From assembly GCA_944381185.1 (NCBI GenBank), contig CALWKE010000002.1, positions 130,050 to 194,049 on the forward strand: DNA of 64,000 nt, in the 5' to 3' direction. The notes under the pieces were generated by a model. That model was not told where the DNA came from. It saw nothing but the letters and a program-made list of their open reading frames with translations, and did no database searches. Position numbers and translations under genes: made by a program. Below, in pieces: positions 1,666-10,408 of this stretch (positions are counted from its first letter, which is position 1; every line of letters starts with the position of its first letter). Source of the DNA: an uncultured Clostridia bacterium (GTDB lineage Bacteria; Bacillota; Clostridia; Christensenellales; UBA1242).

Positions 1666-4600
1666 TTGGAAACTAAAACAACTAGTGTGCAAATGACAAG
1701 AAAAAAAATTATAGGACTTATTGGTCTTATAATTTTTGCTATGATTTTTATTTTTGCATGTCTATCAAGTGTTCTTCCTTTTGGCAGAATGTTAGTTGGC
1801 GTTTTTGGTGTGATGGTCTATCCATTTTCACTGATTTTTGCCTTCTTGTCTTTGGCTGCCTTTTTAGGTTTTTCATATCGCAGAAATGCAAAGGCAACAA
1901 CATATTTTGTTATTGCAATTTTAAGTGTGATACTAGTTATTCATTCAATTTCGACCTTTAAGGAACTTGATGCAGTTGTAACCACTCAAACACTTAAAAA
2001 TTATTTAAATTATGCGTTCACATCTTCAACAGTTTTAGGTGCAGTTGGTTCAACAATTTGTGGGCTCATTTCAATGCTTTTAGGTGGAATGGGAACAATT
2101 GTCGTGTTTGTTATTTTAACAACTCTTTTTGTAGGGCTTTTTATTGATTGGCAACTTTATGGCAAATATGAGGCACCACATATAAAGAAATTAAAATCTA
2201 AAAAGCTTCGAGAAAAAGTTTATAATAGTGATAAAAATGTTTCAACAAATGGAATGCCTGCTTATTCATTTTCAAACGAAGCAGTTGATGAAACTTCGGT
2301 TGATGCAACAGAATATGAAATGAACACACAAACTGAAAGTTATAGTGGGGCAAAATATACAGATGACGATGTTGTTGACGAAATAACTGATGATTATATT
2401 TCAGAAAATAATTCAAATTCAACAACCAGCAATTATTTTGCAGGTTCGTTTAGTTCATATCAAAGTGCAAATTCAACTAACTTTGATGAACCTCAAGAAA
2501 AGAACGAATTTTCTAATAATATTTATGAAGAAACAAGATATCCAGATGTTTATACCCCTGAACTTGACGAACATAGGCGTCAGTTTATGAATGCAACATT
2601 CGGAAAAACTGAAGAAAATAATGAAAATTTAGAGCAAGATTTTCAAACTGAAAATCAAACAAGTTCATTTAATCCATCAATTGATGATGACTCTACAAAT
2701 TTTGTTAATATGCCGGGTGAGTCTTTTGAAAGCATAAATTTGGGTGAGAATCAAAATCAAACCGCTGAAAATATTTCTAGTTATGAAAGCAAAGAAAATT
2801 CTTCAATAAATTCAAATTTAGATGATGAGATTTCAAAAATTTTGAGTTCAAACGAAGAAGATGATGAACTTGAAGTTAAAAATGATGTTTTTGAAAATCA
2901 ACCAAATCAAACATCAAAAGACAATGTAGTTCAGAGTCAAATCAAAAATGAAAATTATAATAACATAACTAAAAATTATAGTGATACAACTTCTTATTCA
3001 GGCGGTTATGACAATTTTGATGATTCAAGAAATAAAGGTTTTGCAGATAGTGGGTTTAAAACTAATAACTTGCAAGATAATTTTTCTAATCAAAAAGAAG
3101 AACAAAGAGTTAATAATTTTAATCAAATGCCAAGGCAAAACGGGTTTAATCAAAATGGTTATAGTGGATTTGCATCAGGGTTTAACAGTCAGCAAAACAC
3201 ACCATTTCAATCGCCTTATAATAATGGATTTAATCAAACAAATAATATTAATTCAGGGTTTGCACAAAATTTAAATTCTAATAGCAGTCAAAATTCAAAT
3301 GTTAACACAAACAAACAAAGTGTTGTTGTTCCTTCAAAACCACCTAAAAATAATTATGGCATGAATATTGGAATGACAGGGTTAAGATATAATCCGCCAC
3401 CATTAAGTTTGCTTCGAACACCAAAAGCGGATACGGGGGACTACACCGAAGAACAGAATAGAAAATCTGCAAAACTTGAAAATGTTCTTGCAGCATTCAA
3501 TATTCCAGCAAAGGTAAAAAATATCGTTCGTGGACCAAAGATAACAAGATATGAACTTGCACTTCCACTGGGCGTTTCTGTTAAAAAAGTGCCAATGTTT
3601 GAAGATGATATTGCAGCTGCACTTGCTGCAAAAACAATTGTTATAAAAGCCCCAATTCCGGGCAGTCAGTTTGTTGGCATTGAACTTGAAAATGACACAT
3701 TTACAAGCGTTTATGAACGAGAACTTTTAGAGTCTGATGCTTTTCAAAATTTCAAAGACCCACTTCCAATTGCAATCGGCAAAGATATTTCAGGCGAGAT
3801 TGTTGTTAAATCACTTGCAAAAATGGTGCATTTGCTTATTGCAGGTTCAACTGGTTCAGGTAAATCAGTGTTTATTCACAACATAGTTTTAAGTTTAATT
3901 TATAAATCAAGTCCAGATGATTTAAGGCTTATAATGATTGACCCTAAAAAAGTTGAATTTAACAGATATAATGGGCTTCCACACCTTTTGACTCCTGAAG
4001 TTGTTATGGGTTCTGATAAGGCAATAAACGCACTCAAGTGGTCAGTTAAAGAAATGGAAAGGCGTTATGACCTTATGTCTAAAGCAGGTTACAATAACAT
4101 AGAGCCATACAACAAAAGTGAACTTGTTAAAGCAGGTCAATTTGAAAAATTTCCTTATATTGTTATTATTGTTGACGAACTTGCCGAAATTATGATGGTT
4201 AATAAAAAAGAAGTTGAAGCATGCATTCAAAGGCTCACACAACTTGCTCGTGCCTGCGGTATGCATTTGGTGCTTGCAACTCAAAGACCTTCAGTTGATA
4301 TAATTTCAGGTGTTATTAAAAACAATATTCCATCAAGAATTGCATTTAGTTTGCAATCAGGTATCGACTCAAAAACCATTTTAAATGCAGTTGGTGCTGA
4401 AAAATTGCTTGGTCAAGGTGATATGATTTTTGCTCCAACAGGCACATCTTCAACACCAAGACTTCAAGCAGCATACGCAAGTGATGAAGAGATTAAGGCA
4501 GTTATTGATTATGACATTAAATATAACAAGGCAAATTATGATGAAACCGTTAACGAGATAATAAATTCTGAACAAACATCTGCTGATGATGCATCAGGTT

Positions 4601-4863
4601 CAGGTGGTGGAGATGCCATTCCTGTTCGTGATTTAGATGGATATTTTAAACAGGCGGTTAAACTTGTTATGCAAAATGACGGGGCATCTGTTTCGTATCT
4701 TCAAAGGCGTCTTTCAATAGGTTACGCAAGGGCAGCAAGAATAATTGACCAAATGGAAGATAAAGGGTATATTGCACCTGCCACAGGCTCAAAGGTTAGA
4801 AAGGTTTTAATCACTCCTGAAATGTTTAAAGAAGAATTTGGTGAAGATTTTGATAGTATTTAA
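1666..4863 (+). CDS. ftsK: DNA translocase, FtsK/SpoIIIE family
   Basis: 1065 aa. N-terminal TM helices, then a roughly 400-aa N/Q/S/D-rich linker. Motor domain has Walker A GSTGSGKS, Walker B IVIIVDELA and ATQRPS. C-terminal gamma winged helix (SYLQRRLSIGYARAARIIDQME). TTG start preceded by AGGGG. Confidence 0.92.
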   Translation: METKTTSVQMTRKKIIGLIGLIIFAMIFIFACLSSVLPFGRMLVGVFGVMVYPFSLIFAFLSLAAFLGFSYRRNAKATTYFVIAILSVILVIHSISTFKELDAVVTTQTLKNYLNYAFTSSTVLGAVGSTICGLISMLLGGMGTIVVFVILTTLFVGLFIDWQLYGKYEAPHIKKLKSKKLREKVYNSDKNVSTNGMPAYSFSNEAVDETSVDATEYEMNTQTESYSGAKYTDDDVVDEITDDYISENNSNSTTSNYFAGSFSSYQSANSTNFDEPQEKNEFSNNIYEETRYPDVYTPELDEHRRQFMNATFGKTEENNENLEQDFQTENQTSSFNPSIDDDSTNFVNMPGESFESINLGENQNQTAENISSYESKENSSINSNLDDEISKILSSNEEDDELEVKNDVFENQPNQTSKDNVVQSQIKNENYNNITKNYSDTTSYSGGYDNFDDSRNKGFADSGFKTNNLQDNFSNQKEEQRVNNFNQMPRQNGFNQNGYSGFASGFNSQQNTPFQSPYNNGFNQTNNINSGFAQNLNSNSSQNSNVNTNKQSVVVPSKPPKNNYGMNIGMTGLRYNPPPLSLLRTPKADTGDYTEEQNRKSAKLENVLAAFNIPAKVKNIVRGPKITRYELALPLGVSVKKVPMFEDDIAAALAAKTIVIKAPIPGSQFVGIELENDTFTSVYERELLESDAFQNFKDPLPIAIGKDISGEIVVKSLAKMVHLLIAGSTGSGKSVFIHNIVLSLIYKSSPDDLRLIMIDPKKVEFNRYNGLPHLLTPEVVMGSDKAINALKWSVKEMERRYDLMSKAGYNNIEPYNKSELVKAGQFEKFPYIVIIVDELAEIMMVNKKEVEACIQRLTQLARACGMHLVLATQRPSVDIISGVIKNNIPSRIAFSLQSGIDSKTILNAVGAEKLLGQGDMIFAPTGTSSTPRLQAAYASDEEIKAVIDYDIKYNKANYDETVNEIINSEQTSADDASGSGGGDAIPVRDLDGYFKQAVKLVMQNDGASVSYLQRRLSIGYARAARIIDQMEDKGYIAPATGSKVRKVLITPEMFKEEFGEDFDSI

Positions 4864-4886
4864 AAATAATTTGTGAGGTAACAAAA

Positions 4887-7058
4887 TTGGATAAAAATGT
4901 TGGTTCTGTTGACCTTGAAGAGTTAAAAAGGGTTAGAGAAGAATTGAATCGTGAAAGGGGCATTGAGAATGACCCAAACATGTATTCAAACTATAATCCT
5001 GACAGAAATAAAGAAGATAATAAAAATGACAGTGCACTTGAAAGTAGTTCCATGGATAGTGAAGAAAAGTCAATGGAAAATTTTTCTAATCACGAAAATC
5101 AAGATAACACTAATGCTTCTGATTTTAATAATGAAACAGTTGATAATTTTAATAATTCTGAACCAATAAATTTTGAAAATTTTGAAGTCAATCAAAATCA
5201 ACAAATCGAGAGCAGTCAACCACAAGAAATTGAGAATAATTTTGAAAATAACAATAGTATTTCAGAATCAACAACAACTGAAATGAATACCCAAAACAAA
5301 GCAAACGAAGATGATGAAAAACCGGCAGAGAAAGATTTTTCTGTATATGATAATTTTGCTGCATTTGAAGTTAATGATGGCAAACCAGTAAGTTTTAATG
5401 AAGATAATGGTGAACTTATTGGTGATGAACCTGATTTGATGCTTAAAAAGAGTGATTATATTGATACTCATGATAGTGAAAATCAAAACGAACAAAGCAG
5501 TGAAAATTTGTTAAATGAAACTGAAACTCATGGTGAATTAACTGAAAAAAAACCAAAAGATTATCTTATTGAAGTTACACCAATAGAGTCAGAACAGTTA
5601 TCAAATCAAAACATTAATTTGAACAATAACATTGCAAGTAATAATGAAGATAAAGTTGAGTATGACTTCAGTGGTGGTGAAGATAATGATGACGAAGTTG
5701 AAACAATATCTGATGAAGAGTTTATGAAACTTTTAAATGGTGAAGATGTTGAAGGTCTTGATGATGAAAAAACTGATGAAGAGAAAAAAGAAAACATTGT
5801 AACAAAAAACTCTGACACACAAGCAAATAAAGTTGAAAATAATGAAATTCAATCAGATAATAAAACTGAAGGTTCAAATGAAGATAATCTTGATGAACTT
5901 TTAAAACAAGGCAAGTTGGGTGAACTTTTGATTGATAATCAAGAAAAAAATGATAATCAAGAAATTGAAAATGCCATTAGTGAAGATAAAGTTGAGTCAG
6001 AGGAAGTCAACCAAAATCAACCACAGATAACTGAAAATAACGAAGAAAATAAACCATTTACAACTGATAAAAATGAAGAAAATCAAGCAGAGCCAAACAC
6101 TTCATTTTTTAGAAGAAGAAAGCCTGATTATGAAAGCACTATAAATTATCGTGAAGTTAATCAAGCAAATTTTGAAAAACAAAACAAAGCATATGACTTG
6201 AATGACGATGAAGTAATTGAAAAAGAAGATGATGATTTTTATCACGAAATTGATTCATTTAACTTTATAGATGTTATTTCGGCGGACGAATTTAAAGATA
6301 ATGGAAATTTGACCTATATTTTAGGTAAAGATGAAGAAAATAAAACCATTTATTCAAATTTAAAAGATTCATTAAATTTTGTTATTTTCGGAAATAATAA
6401 AGAAGATATTTCAGCCGAACTAAATTCTGTTATAATTAGTTTGATGTTAAAAAATTCAGTTGATGATATAAATTTAATTATTTGTGATACTGATAAATCG
6501 AGCAAGTTTAGAGTTTATGATGGCAGTAATTATATGTTTTTTAACAGGGTTGCAAATTCAAACAGAGAAATTTTTGATGCTTTTTCAGAAATATCAATTG
6601 AAATAAACAGCAGATATGATAAATTTGCAAGTATGTCAGTTAAAAATCTTGATGACTATAACTTGAAAGTTGATGCAAATAACAAACTTCCATATTTATT
6701 AGTTATTTATAATAATTATTCTAATAATGAAAATGCCGAATTTTATGATGAAATAAATTCAAGTTTGTTTAGCATGTTAAAACTTGGCAGACTTGTTGGT
6801 GTTTATGTTATCTTGACATCAAATTCTAAAATTGACAATCCAAGTATTAATTATAATTTTCCAACAAGGCTAGCATTTAAACAAGAAACTGAAGATGAAT
6901 CAGTTTCAACTCTTGGTGTTAACAATGCGTCAAAAATTAAAGGTGAGAGCGAATTTATTTGGTTCTCTGTGCTTGAAAATATGTGTTTGCATTTAATAGC
7001 ACCAAGTTTAAGCGACAATGAAGTGAAAAATTTAATTCAAACAATTGAAAATAATTAA
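4887..7058 (+). CDS. FtsK-like protein with degenerate (non-catalytic) motor domain and acidic low-complexity N-terminus
   Basis: The last 250 aa or so are colinear with the FtsK motor domain next door. Walker A is GNNKEDIS, the Walker B region is LLVIYNNYS, and ATQRPS is LTSNSK. No TM helices and no gamma domain. TTG start with a GAGG SD 8 nt upstream. Confidence 0.75.
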   Translation: MDKNVGSVDLEELKRVREELNRERGIENDPNMYSNYNPDRNKEDNKNDSALESSSMDSEEKSMENFSNHENQDNTNASDFNNETVDNFNNSEPINFENFEVNQNQQIESSQPQEIENNFENNNSISESTTTEMNTQNKANEDDEKPAEKDFSVYDNFAAFEVNDGKPVSFNEDNGELIGDEPDLMLKKSDYIDTHDSENQNEQSSENLLNETETHGELTEKKPKDYLIEVTPIESEQLSNQNINLNNNIASNNEDKVEYDFSGGEDNDDEVETISDEEFMKLLNGEDVEGLDDEKTDEEKKENIVTKNSDTQANKVENNEIQSDNKTEGSNEDNLDELLKQGKLGELLIDNQEKNDNQEIENAISEDKVESEEVNQNQPQITENNEENKPFTTDKNEENQAEPNTSFFRRRKPDYESTINYREVNQANFEKQNKAYDLNDDEVIEKEDDDFYHEIDSFNFIDVISADEFKDNGNLTYILGKDEENKTIYSNLKDSLNFVIFGNNKEDISAELNSVIISLMLKNSVDDINLIICDTDKSSKFRVYDGSNYMFFNRVANSNREIFDAFSEISIEINSRYDKFASMSVKNLDDYNLKVDANNKLPYLLVIYNNYSNNENAEFYDEINSSLFSMLKLGRLVGVYVILTSNSKIDNPSINYNFPTRLAFKQETEDESVSTLGVNNASKIKGESEFIWFSVLENMCLHLIAPSLSDNEVKNLIQTIENN

Positions 7059-7077: not shown

Positions 7078-8496
7078 ATGGTCCAAAAGAAAAAAGAAAT
7101 GGCGATAGAAACAACCAATGTTGATGTTTTGAATGTCAATAAAAAAAAGCATAAAACTATGCTTGTTGGTATGATTTCACTCGGTTGTGACAAAAATAGA
7201 GTTGACGCTGAAATCATGCTAACATATCTGCGAGATGCTGGTTATAAGTTTACCACTGATGCATCAAATGCAGACATTATAATAATAAACACTTGCGGAT
7301 TTATTAAAAGTGCCAGAAACGAATCTATGGAAGCCATTAACGAAATGAGTGAATATAGAAAAAATCCAAATGCAAGATGTCAAAGATTGATTGTCACAGG
7401 TTGCATGCCACAAAAGTGGTCTAGTGAAATGCGAGAAGAGTTTCCTGAAGTTGATATATTTTTAGGTATTGACCAGTATACAGACATAGTTAAAGTTATT
7501 GAAACTTCTTTTGATAAAAATAAAAAAATAGTCAAAATTGGTGGAAATTCAAACTTTATTCCTTATGTAAAAGACAGAATGGTTACAACTCCGCTTCACT
7601 ATGCGTACCTTCGAATTGCTGATGGTTGTGATAATTATTGCACATTTTGCACAATTCCTTATATTCGTGGAAGATATAGGTCAAGAAGTATTGAAGACAT
7701 TGTTGATGAGGCAAAAAGTTTGGTTGAAAATGGTGCAAAAGAACTGATTGTTGTTGCACAAGATGTTTCAAGATACGGCATTGATAAATCTGGCAAACCT
7801 GAACTTGTTAAACTTATAAAAGAACTTTCAAAAATTAATGGATTAAAGTGGATAAGACTTTTGTATTGTTATCCCGAAATGATTACTGATGAACTTTTAT
7901 CTGAAATGGTAACAAACCCAAAACTATGTAAATATATTGACTTGCCACTTCAACATATTTCAAACAATGTGCTAAAGAGAATGAATCGTCATACCTCTAA
8001 AGAAGATGTTGTTCGAATTGTTGAAAAACTTAAAAATTTGCCAGTGTTTGTTGCAATAAGAACAACATTTATGGCAGGCTTTCCGGGAGAGTCGGAAGAA
8101 GATTTTAAAGAACTTTGCGAATTTGTTGAAAAATATAAGCTTATGCATGTTGGATTCTTTGCTTATTCAAGGGAAGAAGGCACAGTTGCAGCGGGATATC
8201 CAGACCAAATAAGCGAAGAAGTTAAAAGGAAGAGAGTTTTAAAATTATTTAAAATTCAAAAAAAAGTTGTTGCTGAAAATAATAAAAAGTTTATAGGAAA
8301 AACTCTTGAAGTTTGCTATGAAGGTATTGATTATGATAAGCAACTATTCTTTGGCAGATGTCAATATCAGACGCCAGAGGCCGACACACTTGTTTATTTT
8401 AAATCAAAATATCCAGTTGAAGTTGGCAGATTTTATAAAGTAAAAATAACAAAATCAAGAGGTTATGACCTTCAAGGAGAAATTGAATATGAGTAA
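7078..8496 (+). CDS. rimO: ribosomal protein S12 methylthiotransferase RimO (radical SAM MTTase)
   Basis: MTTase N-domain (ISLGCDKNRVDAE), radical SAM CDNYCTFC, C-terminal TRAM-like region. Conserved rimO-pgsA-recA order. AAGGGG SD supports ATG 7078 rather than 7045. Confidence 0.85.
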   Translation: MVQKKKEMAIETTNVDVLNVNKKKHKTMLVGMISLGCDKNRVDAEIMLTYLRDAGYKFTTDASNADIIIINTCGFIKSARNESMEAINEMSEYRKNPNARCQRLIVTGCMPQKWSSEMREEFPEVDIFLGIDQYTDIVKVIETSFDKNKKIVKIGGNSNFIPYVKDRMVTTPLHYAYLRIADGCDNYCTFCTIPYIRGRYRSRSIEDIVDEAKSLVENGAKELIVVAQDVSRYGIDKSGKPELVKLIKELSKINGLKWIRLLYCYPEMITDELLSEMVTNPKLCKYIDLPLQHISNNVLKRMNRHTSKEDVVRIVEKLKNLPVFVAIRTTFMAGFPGESEEDFKELCEFVEKYKLMHVGFFAYSREEGTVAAGYPDQISEEVKRKRVLKLFKIQKKVVAENNKKFIGKTLEVCYEGIDYDKQLFFGRCQYQTPEADTLVYFKSKYPVEVGRFYKVKITKSRGYDLQGEIEYE

Positions 8497-10355: not shown

Positions 10356-10382
10356 TTTAATTTTGTATAAAAAATCAAAAAA

Positions 10383-10408
10383 ACACAGAATTTTCTGTGT
10401 TTTTCTTT
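10383..10408 (+). terminator. intrinsic terminator after recA
   Basis: Stem ACACAGAA/TTCTGTGT followed by a T-run. Confidence 0.8.

Follow-up and report, generated by a model that had tools for sequence, protein, structure and literature searches.

A catalytically degenerate FtsK paralogue encoded next to ftsK in one genus of uncultured gut Clostridia

The window analysed here, a 64,000-nt stretch of DNA from an uncultured Clostridia bacterium, contains immediately after ftsK a gene for a soluble, polyanionic protein that we call psi-FtsK. Its C-terminal domain has the fold of an FtsK motor domain, from which the residues of the ATP site and those that grip DNA have largely disappeared. We tentatively regard psi-FtsK as a genus-specific ftsK duplicate that has evolved into a pseudo-ATPase, serving FtsK as partner or regulator, a plausible reading that we do not hold firmly. 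Gene position and the residues that have been retained are what suggest such a role on the FtsK hexamer. Among known DNA pumps, FtsK/SpoIIIE motors are the fastest, and the restraint of their assembly and activity at the septum is under debate.

The psi-FtsK gene and its neighbours

The genes and signals of the locus are as follows.

1666..4863, + strand: ftsK, presumed parent and presumed partner of psi-FtsK (Pfam domains, hydrophobic windows)
4864..4886, + strand: ftsK-psi spacer of 23 nt, with the Shine-Dalgarno sequence GTGAGGT at 4873-4879 (sequence reading)
4887..7058, + strand: psi-FtsK, pseudo-ATPase paralogue of FtsK, 723 aa (whole open reading frame, TTG start)
7078..8496, + strand: rimO-like methylthiotransferase, downstream neighbour (Pfam UPF0004, Radical_SAM, TRAM_2)

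The stop codon of ftsK (TAA) occupies positions 4861-4863, and the gap to psi-FtsK is thus exactly the 23 nt given in the initial annotation. ftsK and psi-FtsK are read in different frames, so that no read-through of one into the other occurs naturally. The rimO-like gene begins with ATG at 7078, preceded by AAGGGG. These genes belong to a housekeeping operon in the order M16-ftsK-psi-rimO-pgsA-recA-rny, and no terminator-like site was found on the + strand between positions 346 and 10379, nor any terminator between the M16 gene and recA. psi-FtsK would be co-transcribed with ftsK and translated from its TTG codon; 14 of 16 loci share this combination of Shine-Dalgarno sequence and TTG start. 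As this start is weak, psi-FtsK is probably less abundant than FtsK.

The FtsK of the window has the complete architecture of the family, with transmembrane segments, an N/S-rich linker and the alpha, beta and gamma domains (Pfam FtsK_alpha 81.7 bits, FtsK_SpoIIIE 204 bits, FtsK_gamma 88.9 bits). Its 73 hydrophobic windows (19-aa Kyte-Doolittle, > 1.6) lie at the N-terminus. Only two proteins of the 1.37-Mb genome match PF01580 above the cut-off, namely FtsK and psi-FtsK. ftsK is the sole complete FtsK/SpoIIIE translocase gene of the genome, making its product the single candidate partner of psi-FtsK. A search of the same genome for a separate gamma-domain gene was negative, while one lineage (L047) has a gene with two gamma domains.

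A degenerate motor domain

The features of the C-terminal domain are listed below.

6237..7055, + strand: degenerate FtsK beta (RecA-like) domain, aa 451-723, 273 aa (AF2, Foldseek, dN/dS)
6387..6413, + strand: Walker A remnant FGNNKEDIS, aa 501-509, in place of AGSTGSGKS (family alignment)
6708..6722, + strand: Walker B remnant YNNYS, aa 608-612, in place of VDELA (family alignment)
6777..6806, + strand: retained arginine finger R635 in LKLGRLVGVY, aa 631-640 (family alignment)
6816..6857, + strand: remnant of the sensor and DNA-binding loop II, TSNSKIDNPSINYN (family alignment)
6879..6914, + strand: remnant of DNA-binding loop I, KQETEDESVSTL (alignment)

The colinear similarity to the neighbouring FtsK motor, pointed out in the initial annotation, was borne out by three types of searches. 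BLASTP pairs residues 469-717 of psi-FtsK with residues 696-947 of FtsK (85 bits, E 6e-21, 25% identity over 260 aa). Pfam FtsK_SpoIIIE (PF01580, cut-off 24 bits) matches residues 470-671 with 39.5 bits (E 5.6e-10; 42.1 bits in the genome-wide scan), and phmmer against the PDB finds FtsK 2IUS (1.9e-12). The structural check gave the same answer. The AF2 model, for which the input was a 66-sequence family alignment, has a pLDDT of ~95 in this domain, and the top 17 Foldseek matches of the domain model are all FtsK motor domains (rmsd 1.9-2.8 Å), the best one being 2ius_F (E 7.5e-21, rmsd 2.3 Å, about 290 columns). Among the elements of FtsK that psi-FtsK keeps are the P[ST]R[IL]AF strand and the E..RY helix. 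The net charge of the domain ranges from -7 to -23, compared with -2 for the FtsK motor.

Residue counts for the psi-FtsK family were taken over 67 cluster representatives. None of them has a G-K-[ST] at the Walker A position, and the preceding Ala, which is invariant in FtsK, is replaced by Phe in 65 of the 67. At Walker B, Asp has become Asn in 54/67 and Glu has become Asn in 56/67 sequences; the Glu is gone from all 67, and the Asp is kept in seven. A deep subgroup with that Asp reads DGYxELM, which is close to the DELAELM of FtsK. The QRP region carries a three-residue gap in 67/67 sequences, with neither Q873 nor R874 kept. In PaFtsK, the DNA-contact residues are R632 and K643 in loop II and K657 and R661 in loop I (PMC7321959). 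The FtsK residue K885, equivalent to Pa K643, is Asn in every psi-FtsK representative, and the basic K657/R661(Pa) positions of loop I are now acidic or aliphatic.

The replacements quoted in the initial annotation (GSTGSGKS by GNNKEDIS, VDELA by YNNYS, and the pairing of IPSRIAF with FPTRLAF) are all present in the alignment, as is that of ATQRPS by LTSNSK, which comes together with the three-residue deletion. Its statement that every catalytic element had been replaced holds for Walker A, Walker B and the QRP sensor but goes too far, because the arginine finger is retained. In the alignment, R635 occupies the place of R862 in the window FtsK and of R620 in PaFtsK, the trans-acting arginine finger (PMC7321959); this position is Arg in 66 of the 67 representatives and Lys in one. 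No other block of the domain is conserved as strongly as the surrounding LKLGRLVGVY, in which G634 and G638 are invariant. More generally, 17 of the 65 FtsK positions that are conserved at >=94% survive in psi-FtsK, the arginine finger among them, and R800 and R891 are also retained in the family. The arginine could nevertheless have been kept for structural reasons.

From its sequence, psi-FtsK is predicted to be unable to bind or hydrolyse ATP or to grip DNA. Devoid of transmembrane, alpha and gamma segments, of Walker A and B motifs, of the QRP sensor and of the basic loop residues, it cannot be an ATP-driven DNA pump.

The residues that replace the catalytic ones are themselves conserved, and this bears on a first alternative, namely that psi-FtsK is a neofunctionalised scaffold acting apart from FtsK, with a dead RecA-like domain reused to bind another partner or ligand. 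The new function would reside in the remodelled pocket, with its invariant F501, N609/N610, Y611, N655 and H702, and adjacency to ftsK would be a historical trace. We consider this possible, if rather unlikely. The near-invariant substitutions of the old active site, i.e. the Ala-to-Phe and K885-to-Asn replacements described above, R932 to His in 65/67 representatives and the NNY triplet, argue in its favour, as they do not look like mere decay. However, the best-conserved block of the domain is that of the arginine finger, a pattern that makes little sense unless the partner carries a nucleotide, and neither a second FtsK-like ATPase nor any other obvious partner is encoded near psi-FtsK.

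The N-terminal part of psi-FtsK comprises three features.

4887..5021, + strand: conserved N-terminal module, aa 1-45, putative peptide for docking or targeting (conservation, AF2 helix)
5022..6236, + strand: disordered acidic Glu/Asn/Asp-rich linker, aa 46-450 (pLDDT < 50)
5334..5372, + strand: short linear motif DFSVYDNFAAFEV, aa 150-162, within the linker (family conservation)

The consensus of the N-terminal module is M-x-KNVGSVDLEELKxAREELNxERGIETDPNMY..YNP. Over 66 sequences, E12 and R17 are invariant and L13, E23, G25 and P30 nearly so; residues 10-23 are predicted to form a helix (AF2, pLDDT ~75-82). The module occurs once in the genome, without a second copy, and has no Pfam match. 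In a search of 5.8 billion proteins it was found solely on proteins that also bear PF01580.

The linker corresponds to the acidic Asn/Glu/Asp-rich N-terminus that had been described at the outset, with the module included ~450 aa in length. In 67 family members it spans 211-605 aa with a net charge of -13 to -173 (median -83), and no other of the 519 genomic ORFs with 300 aa or more is as acidic as psi-FtsK. The linear motif it contains, DFSVYDNFAxFE, has near-invariant D155, F157 and F160 and is present in two copies in some species. The pattern [YF]D.F[AS].F[ED] is found in most psi-FtsK family members and occurs a single time genome-wide. As initially proposed, there is neither a transmembrane segment (maximum 19-aa Kyte-Doolittle window 1.47, none > 1.6) nor a gamma (KOPS/Xer) domain; Pfam matches to FtsK_alpha (PF17854) and FtsK_gamma (PF09397) are both absent from psi-FtsK. 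These conserved N-terminal and linker motifs, being absent from FtsK, also fit the scaffold alternative.

Distribution and evolution

psi-FtsK is present in a single genus of uncultured gut Clostridia, in 21 of its 21 species, with no internal stop codon in any of them. Elsewhere in the family, 380 genomes covering 57 further genera all lack it, and in an order-wide sample it is present in one genus out of 174. Relatives within the order each possess just one gene of the FtsK type. Among 1.84 billion representatives the psi-FtsK family amounts to about 75 clusters at 50% identity, and a score gap divides these clusters from true FtsKs.

The position of the gene is equally constant. psi-FtsK lies immediately 3' of ftsK in 16/16 loci, with a spacer of ~20 nt or similar, and always between ftsK and rimO. 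Of six sister genera examined, four (L016, L018, L020 and L021) have ftsK directly adjoining rimO, without psi-FtsK. In the phylogenetic tree the psi clade is monophyletic (100/100) and nested in a 98/98 clade containing the FtsKs of the family. An arrangement in which psi-FtsK is sister to the FtsK of its genus survives the AU test (p 0.41), but the tree cannot place the long stem and is just as undecided about a grouping with order-level FtsKs. Descent from the resident ftsK is thus supported by position and falls short of proof because the tree leaves the sister group of psi-FtsK unsettled.

psi-FtsK is under purifying selection, with dN/dS values of 0 for the N-terminal module (dN = 0 against two close relatives), 0.13-0.17 for the domain and 0.36-0.38 for the linker. 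The domain has nevertheless diverged much faster than its presumed parent, with a mean pairwise identity within the genus of 44% versus 82% for the FtsK motor, and the psi stem branch measures 3.9 substitutions per site. The fast domain evolution and the long stem also fit neofunctionalisation away from FtsK, i.e. the scaffold alternative, against which stands the tight linkage to ftsK, maintained across this long divergence.

The initial annotation was to be called into question by a gene that was sporadic or disrupted in close relatives, or by a domain without structural similarity to the FtsK RecA-like fold. The gene is neither sporadic nor disrupted, given its presence in 21/21 genomes, its intact frame and the selection acting on it, and the fold was found; thus, both checks leave the annotation standing.

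The same data bear on the idea that psi-FtsK is a functionless leftover of a tandem ftsK duplication undergoing slow erosion. The loss of all the cis-catalytic motifs, the high divergence and the low-complexity linker of variable length are what such a relic might look like. However, the frame is open in every genome, the dN/dS values of the domain stay far under 1 and that of the N-terminal module is zero, family covariation yields a domain model of very high confidence and the Shine-Dalgarno sequence and TTG start are conserved. Moreover, the genomes of the genus are streamlined (~1.0-1.4 Mb), and a useless 2.2-kb gene is therefore not expected to persist in them. Conservation effectively refutes this explanation, to which we give almost no credence.

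Another explanation holds that psi-FtsK is a conflict decoy or guard, an inert mimic of the FtsK motor that titrates or senses phage or plasmid factors aimed at FtsK-type translocases. Its faster evolution relative to the parent, its restriction to one genus and weak matches to FtsK/HerA-type defence domains (PADLOC SspH, 27 bits; mads_8, 24 bits) could be taken in this sense, but those matches reflect the shared fold only. In addition, the operon is a housekeeping one with no defence or mobile genes adjoining psi-FtsK, the gene is universal in the genus and vertically inherited rather than patchy, and the dN/dS of the domain denotes purifying, not diversifying, selection over recent divergence. 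We thus regard a decoy as improbable.

The initial annotation also considered a regulator plausible in a sporulating organism. The organism indeed carries Spo0A and SpoIVA, but the link is not specific, as SpoIVA is present in 57 of 61 genomes of relatives without psi-FtsK. Sporulation was thus rejected as an explanation of the distribution, the sporulation genes being equally present in relatives devoid of psi-FtsK.

Possible role and relationship to known systems

A sequence of events that would fit the partner or regulator reading begins in the genus ancestor, where a second version of the ftsK motor region would have arisen between ftsK and rimO, tandem duplication being the simplest route. 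The copy would then have been kept in every sampled species of this small-genome, spore-forming genus. It would have lost the membrane anchor, the alpha and gamma domains, the P-loop and Walker B motifs, the QRP sensor and the basic positions of the two DNA-gripping loops, kept the RecA-like core with the face bearing the trans-acting arginine finger, and gained the 45-aa helix-containing module, the DFSVYDNFAxFE motif and the polyanionic linker.

In the present-day protein, the beta-like domain might bind an FtsK beta domain on the side of its nucleotide pocket and insert R635 in the manner of a neighbouring FtsK subunit. With no ATP hydrolysis, no hold on DNA and no alpha domain to close the ring, psi-FtsK would then cap or interrupt FtsK oligomers, which could tune the assembly or the ATPase activity of FtsK. 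The N-terminal module and the linear motif would tie psi-FtsK to another partner, and the acidic tail may shield or mimic DNA. The data show homology and fold, the motif losses with the arginine finger retained, and distribution, synteny and purifying selection, whereas the binding to FtsK, the direction of its effect and the role of the N-terminal motifs are inferences; without an alpha domain, psi-FtsK may not enter the FtsK ring at all. A more specific version, in which psi-FtsK is a dedicated, separately encoded non-catalytic FtsK/SpoIIIE subunit whose arginine finger engages the ATP site so as to cap or interrupt the hexamer, and whose N-terminal peptide, motif and tail link this control to the divisome or to DNA, strikes us as conceivable though doubtful.

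Subunit coordination has been studied with engineered hexamers that contain dead subunits. If this version is true, psi-FtsK would be a natural 'dead-subunit' experiment, a stand-alone dead subunit made by evolution and selected beside a live motor, with the trans-acting residue kept and the cis-acting and DNA-contact residues removed. It would also be the first reported case, for a bacterial dsDNA translocase, of a pseudo-ATPase regulator that acts in trans. Should psi-FtsK bind FtsK, it would be a regulator provided by nature and a tool to dissect communication through the arginine finger, as well as an example of pseudoenzyme birth by tandem duplication in streamlined genomes, within the reach set by its restriction to one uncultured genus. 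The initial annotation knew of no precedent, and our literature search likewise found no description of an FtsK pseudo-ATPase, degenerate paralogue or pseudoenzyme of this kind; one family member is named "hypothetical protein" by NCBI. A published Dnd case that surfaced in the search concerns other inactive domains and is not relevant.

Compared with the FtsK/SpoIIIE beta domain (PDB 2IUS, 2IUU, 6T8B), psi-FtsK has the same fold, shares common ancestry and adjoins the parent gene. It differs in having no membrane anchor, no alpha or gamma domain, no Walker A or B and no QRP sensor/loop II, and in that Asn or acidic residues occupy the DNA-gripping loop positions that are basic in FtsK. No NCBIfam family matches it above cut-off, and the FtsK equivalog reaches 32 bits (cut-off 1566).

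SftA of Bacillus subtilis is similarly a second, non-membrane-spanning FtsK-family protein beside a membrane-bound translocase (PMC9320952). Both proteins have a short conserved N-terminal module followed by a linker and an FtsK-like domain. The first ~60 residues of SftA mediate divisome targeting via SepF/FtsA (PMC9320952), and by analogy the partner of the N-terminal module or linear motif of psi-FtsK may be a divisome component. However, SftA has a working alpha-beta-gamma ATPase, is widespread among Bacilli and is encoded away from spoIIIE, whereas psi-FtsK consists of a dead beta domain only, belongs to one genus and is adjacent to ftsK, and its N-terminal module has no detectable similarity to anything else. 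An assignment as an SftA-type protein was thus rejected; psi-FtsK is soluble and has an N-terminal module but is devoid of alpha, gamma and ATPase motifs.

The degenerate domains of T7SS EccC/EssC (pseudo-ATPase DUF, D2 and D3) also combine an FtsK fold with degenerate or absent nucleotide-site motifs, and they are regulatory or structural modules of an active FtsK-like ATPase. EccC/EssC structures (PDB 8RIN, 4NH0, 4LYA, 6TV1) are among the structural matches of psi-FtsK, and there are weak NCBIfam matches as well, namely TIGR03924 on psi-FtsK (29 bits, cut-off 509) and TIGR03928 for a relative (51 bits, cut-off 778). These scores are far below the family cut-offs and psi-FtsK is a stand-alone ORF between ftsK and rimO; it was thus not assigned to EccC/EssC. 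The EccC/EssC domains are fused in cis in a membrane protein for protein secretion, with WXG100 and ess/esx neighbours. In contrast, psi-FtsK is a separate polypeptide encoded in a chromosome-maintenance operon, and in both sequence and structure it is nearer to FtsK proper than to EccC/EssC.

Locus and gene order

The protein that we call psi-FtsK (psi, 723 residues) is encoded between ftsK and rimO, in a run of seven co-oriented genes occupying the first 12 kb of the window:

379-1656, + strand: M16-type peptidase homolog
1666-4863, + strand: ftsK (1065 aa; TM segments, a long N/S-rich linker, FtsK_alpha, FtsK_SpoIIIE and FtsK_gamma)
4887-7058, + strand: psi ORF (723 aa)
7078-8496, + strand: RimO-like radical-SAM methylthiotransferase, with ATG 7078 as its most likely start
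downstream of the rimO-like gene, + strand: pgsA, recA and rny

ftsK ends with its stop codon at 4861-4863 and psi begins with TTG at 4887, preceded by GTGAGGT at 4873-4879, in agreement with the 23-nt spacer reported in the initial annotation. Terminator-like hairpins bracket the block on the + strand, at 322-346 upstream of the M16 gene and at 10379-10404 after recA. As a consensus scan found none on that strand between 346 and 10379, the M16-to-recA block looks like one transcription unit, and M16-ftsK-psi-rimO-pgsA-recA may form a single long operon. This gene order is found in 16/16 loci with sequence context. The M16 peptidase homolog itself keeps its place upstream of ftsK throughout the genus (69-82% identity), and most sister genera have it there too.

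The psi start codon was compared at window positions 4887-4889 and at the homologous position of the loci of relatives L005-L015, L042, L044, L047 and L048. It is TTG in 14 of the 16 loci, GTG in one and ATG in one, and always lies 6-8 nt past a strong GAGG-type Shine-Dalgarno sequence. This deeply conserved non-ATG start hints at tuned, probably modest translation.

One deep lineage of the group (L047:4365-4994; GCA_965334265.1, contig CBDPWK010000060.1) has an extra gene between ftsK and psi. In its predicted 209-aa product, a Lys-rich tail follows a tandem pair of winged-helix domains of the FtsK gamma type, with 44-46% identity to that of FtsK itself. This gives the hotspot another non-catalytic module derived from FtsK. 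The window's genome has no such two-gamma gene.

A degenerate FtsK motor domain

The colinear likeness to the FtsK motor noted initially was borne out by BLASTP, which gave a single alignment between psi 469-717 and residues 696-947 of the neighbouring FtsK (85 bits, E 6e-21, 25% identity over 260 residues), and by the Pfam model FtsK_SpoIIIE (PF01580), which matches psi 470-671 with 39.5 bits for a curated cut-off of 24. A phmmer search of PDB sequences returned FtsK motor domains only (2IUS, 1.9e-12; 2IUU and 2IUT, ~1e-11). The best structural match of an AlphaFold2 model built from an 11-sequence alignment was already the FtsK motor. With a 66-sequence family alignment, residues 451-723 (the 'dead domain') were modelled at pLDDT ~95, and the first 17 Foldseek matches in the PDB were all FtsK motor chains (E down to 7.5e-21, rmsd 1.9-2.8 Å, ~285-299 aligned columns), followed by TcpA and the EccC/EssC ATPase domains. 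By profile search and structure prediction alike, this is a RecA-like beta domain of the FtsK type.

We also confirmed that psi has neither a TM segment nor a gamma domain. Its maximum 19-residue Kyte-Doolittle mean is 1.47, compared with 73 windows above 1.6 in FtsK, and no alpha or gamma domain was detected by Pfam.

The roles of motor residues are known from the cryo-EM structure of Pseudomonas aeruginosa FtsK (PaFtsK), namely the arginine finger R620, the DNA loop II residues R632, S634, V635, G640 and K643, and the DNA loop I residues K657 and R661 (PMC7321959). When 67 psi domains were aligned with 34 FtsK motors, only 17 of the 65 columns conserved in at least 94% of the FtsKs proved to be kept in psi. 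Across the 67 sequences the P-loop (G727...S734 in the window's FtsK) is lost entirely, and the Walker B residues D837 and E838 are replaced by N in 54/67 and 56/67 proteins, respectively. Q873, R874 and P875 are not retained, and every sequence lacks 3 residues in this region; K885 (Pa K643) is Asn in 67/67; the basic residues of loop I have become acidic or aliphatic; and R932 and Q934 are lost.

All the motif substitutions quoted in the initial annotation are present in the alignment. Its statement that every catalytic element is replaced holds for the cis-acting and DNA-contacting elements, but not for the arginine finger, which acts on the neighbouring subunit. This residue (FtsK R862, psi R635) is R in 66/67 proteins and K in one, and sits in the best-conserved block of the dead domain, LK[LFY]GR[LI][VA]G.Y. 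Conservation extends to R891 of the P[ST]R[IL]AF strand, to the E..RY helix and to several glycines and hydrophobic residues in the core. The former pocket carries near-invariant residues of its own (A726 replaced by F, NNY, N655 and H702), consistent with a filled or remodelled pocket.

Although psi belongs to the PF01580 domain family, it is not a functional FtsK/SpoIIIE translocase, whose Walker A, Walker B, DNA loops, alpha and gamma domains and TM segments it lacks. From its sequence, canonical nucleotide binding is predicted to be absent, and the DNA-gripping residues are gone.

Family, distribution and origin

A word-indexed search identified 12 psi relatives, with identities down to 38%. 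When 1.84 billion cluster representatives were searched exhaustively with a profile, ~75 psi clusters emerged (E 1e-260 to ~1e-43), below which a score gap precedes thousands of ordinary FtsKs. The only name given to any member in any source is 'hypothetical protein', and no NCBIfam model comes near its cut-off on psi. All members share the same architecture: an N-terminal module of 45 residues (M-x-KNVGSVDLEELKxAREELNxERGIETDPNMY..YNP, in which E12 and R17 never vary), a disordered, acidic linker, 211-605 residues long, with a conserved DFSVYDNFAxFE motif, and the C-terminal dead domain. With -0.138 net charge per residue, psi ranks first in acidity among the genome's 519 ORFs of 300 residues or more. 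The median linker charge in the family is -83, and the dead domain ranges from -7 to -23, compared with -2 for the FtsK motor. The psi linker of the window has ~-0.2 net charge per residue, versus ~-0.1 for the FtsK linker. In one short 3-kb ENA contig, a predicted 475-aa protein (P0006) joins a TM and PDZ-domain N-terminus to a psi C-domain 99% identical to that of the window; it most likely stems from chimeric assembly and not from a genuine fusion.

Whole-genome searches showed that psi is neither sporadic nor disrupted in the window's own GTDB genus, being present in 21/21 species genomes as an open frame without stops. It was found in 0/380 genomes (57 genera) of the rest of the family and in 1/174 genera (401 genomes) of an even sample of the order. 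Relatives outside the genus carry exactly one FtsK-type gene. Among six other genera of the family examined, none has a gene between ftsK and the next gene: ftsK is directly followed by rimO in four (L016, L018, L020 and L021) and by pgsA in L019, and L017 has a different neighbourhood. Given the constant order in the 16 loci and the lack of an intervening gene elsewhere, psi was inserted behind ftsK, at its 3' end, on the stem of one genus and has been vertically inherited since. The sub-clades (L007, L008, L012, L013) and (L006, L010) recur in the psi and FtsK trees alike. We regard a conflict-related decoy as improbable.

The genome (1.37 Mb, ~95% complete) codes for Spo0A (143 bits) and SpoIVA (371 bits), in agreement with the sporulating organism initially assumed; this trait is not specific to psi carriers, however. 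SpoIVA is present in 57/61 relatives, including psi-less ones, and sporulation is therefore a whole-group trait that does not explain the distribution of psi. The main Spo0A lies at C1:77032-77340; a second, shorter ORF of 186 aa, outside the window, matches the Spo0A C-terminal domain (C2:83557-83856, 71 bits).

Nei-Gojobori comparisons of the window with two close relatives (dS 0.09-0.26) gave dN/dS values of 0 for the N-terminal module, 0.13-0.17 for the dead domain and 0.36-0.38 for the linker, versus 0.20 for whole FtsK. Over ten species, mean pairwise identity is 44% for psi versus 82% for the FtsK motor, and the stem of the psi clade measures 3.9 substitutions per site. Thus, psi is constrained yet evolves fast, at greater depth much faster than its parent. 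That it is a functionless relic is very unlikely.

Psi forms a monophyletic group (100/100) in the maximum-likelihood tree (45 beta domains, LG+C20 PMSF), nested within a clade holding all FtsKs of the family (98/98). More than one sister group of psi fits this tree: a constraint that joins it to the FtsK of its own genus lowers the log-likelihood by 2 units (AU p 0.41); constraining psi, the genus FtsK and the nearest sister genus together gave a slightly better tree than the free search. At 27 positions the genus FtsK departs from all other FtsKs, and there psi mostly retains the ancestral residue; either the copy branched off first, or the substitutions arose in the resident FtsK once the copy existed. 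A deep psi subgroup (P0068, P0070, P0072-75) has DGYxELM where FtsK has DELAELM. In view of where psi lies, its confinement to a single genus and these relics, the simplest origin is a tandem duplication of the resident ftsK, which the tree allows but does not prove.

The 27 genus-specific substitutions fall in the FtsK motor (aa 686-950, window 3721-4515) at positions conserved elsewhere, e.g. C736F just past the P-loop, N738H, P721V, D841E and G935A. They could represent co-adaptation to psi or plain lineage drift.

Possible role and comparison with known systems

Altogether, the results establish that psi is a pseudo-ATPase of FtsK descent, specific to one genus and maintained there by selection. 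Going beyond homology, motif status, distribution and selection, we tentatively propose, with slightly less than even confidence, that it is a partner or regulator of FtsK, the only other FtsK-type ATPase in the genome. In the most economical mechanism, psi would use its retained surface to dock onto an FtsK beta domain, at the face bearing the nucleotide pocket, with R635 replacing the finger of the neighbouring subunit. Since it lacks an alpha domain, DNA loops and an ATP site, psi would cap or interrupt the FtsK oligomer rather than be a normal ring member, and thereby might modulate FtsK assembly or ATPase activity. Conserved helix modules and aromatic-acidic linear motifs are classic partner-binding elements, and those of the N-terminal module and linker are candidates for such a function. 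A new role independent of FtsK is rather unlikely, though clearly more plausible than a decoy or a relic.

As a putative partner of FtsK that is confined to a narrow group of uncultured organisms, psi has limited significance; it nevertheless represents a clean, unusual evolutionary experiment that yields a testable hypothesis. We found no description in the literature of a stand-alone dead FtsK paralog adjoining ftsK. In Bacillus subtilis, a short N-terminal region recruits the soluble FtsK paralog SftA to the divisome via SepF/FtsA (PMC9320952), which sets a precedent for partner binding by the N-terminal module of psi. Like SftA, psi is a second FtsK-family protein that is soluble and carries such a module, but it is catalytically dead, truncated and found in one genus only. 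The nearest functional precedents are the degenerate FtsK-fold domains of EccC/EssC in type VII secretion systems; unlike psi, they are fused in cis and are part of a secretion machine, in which they regulate an active domain.
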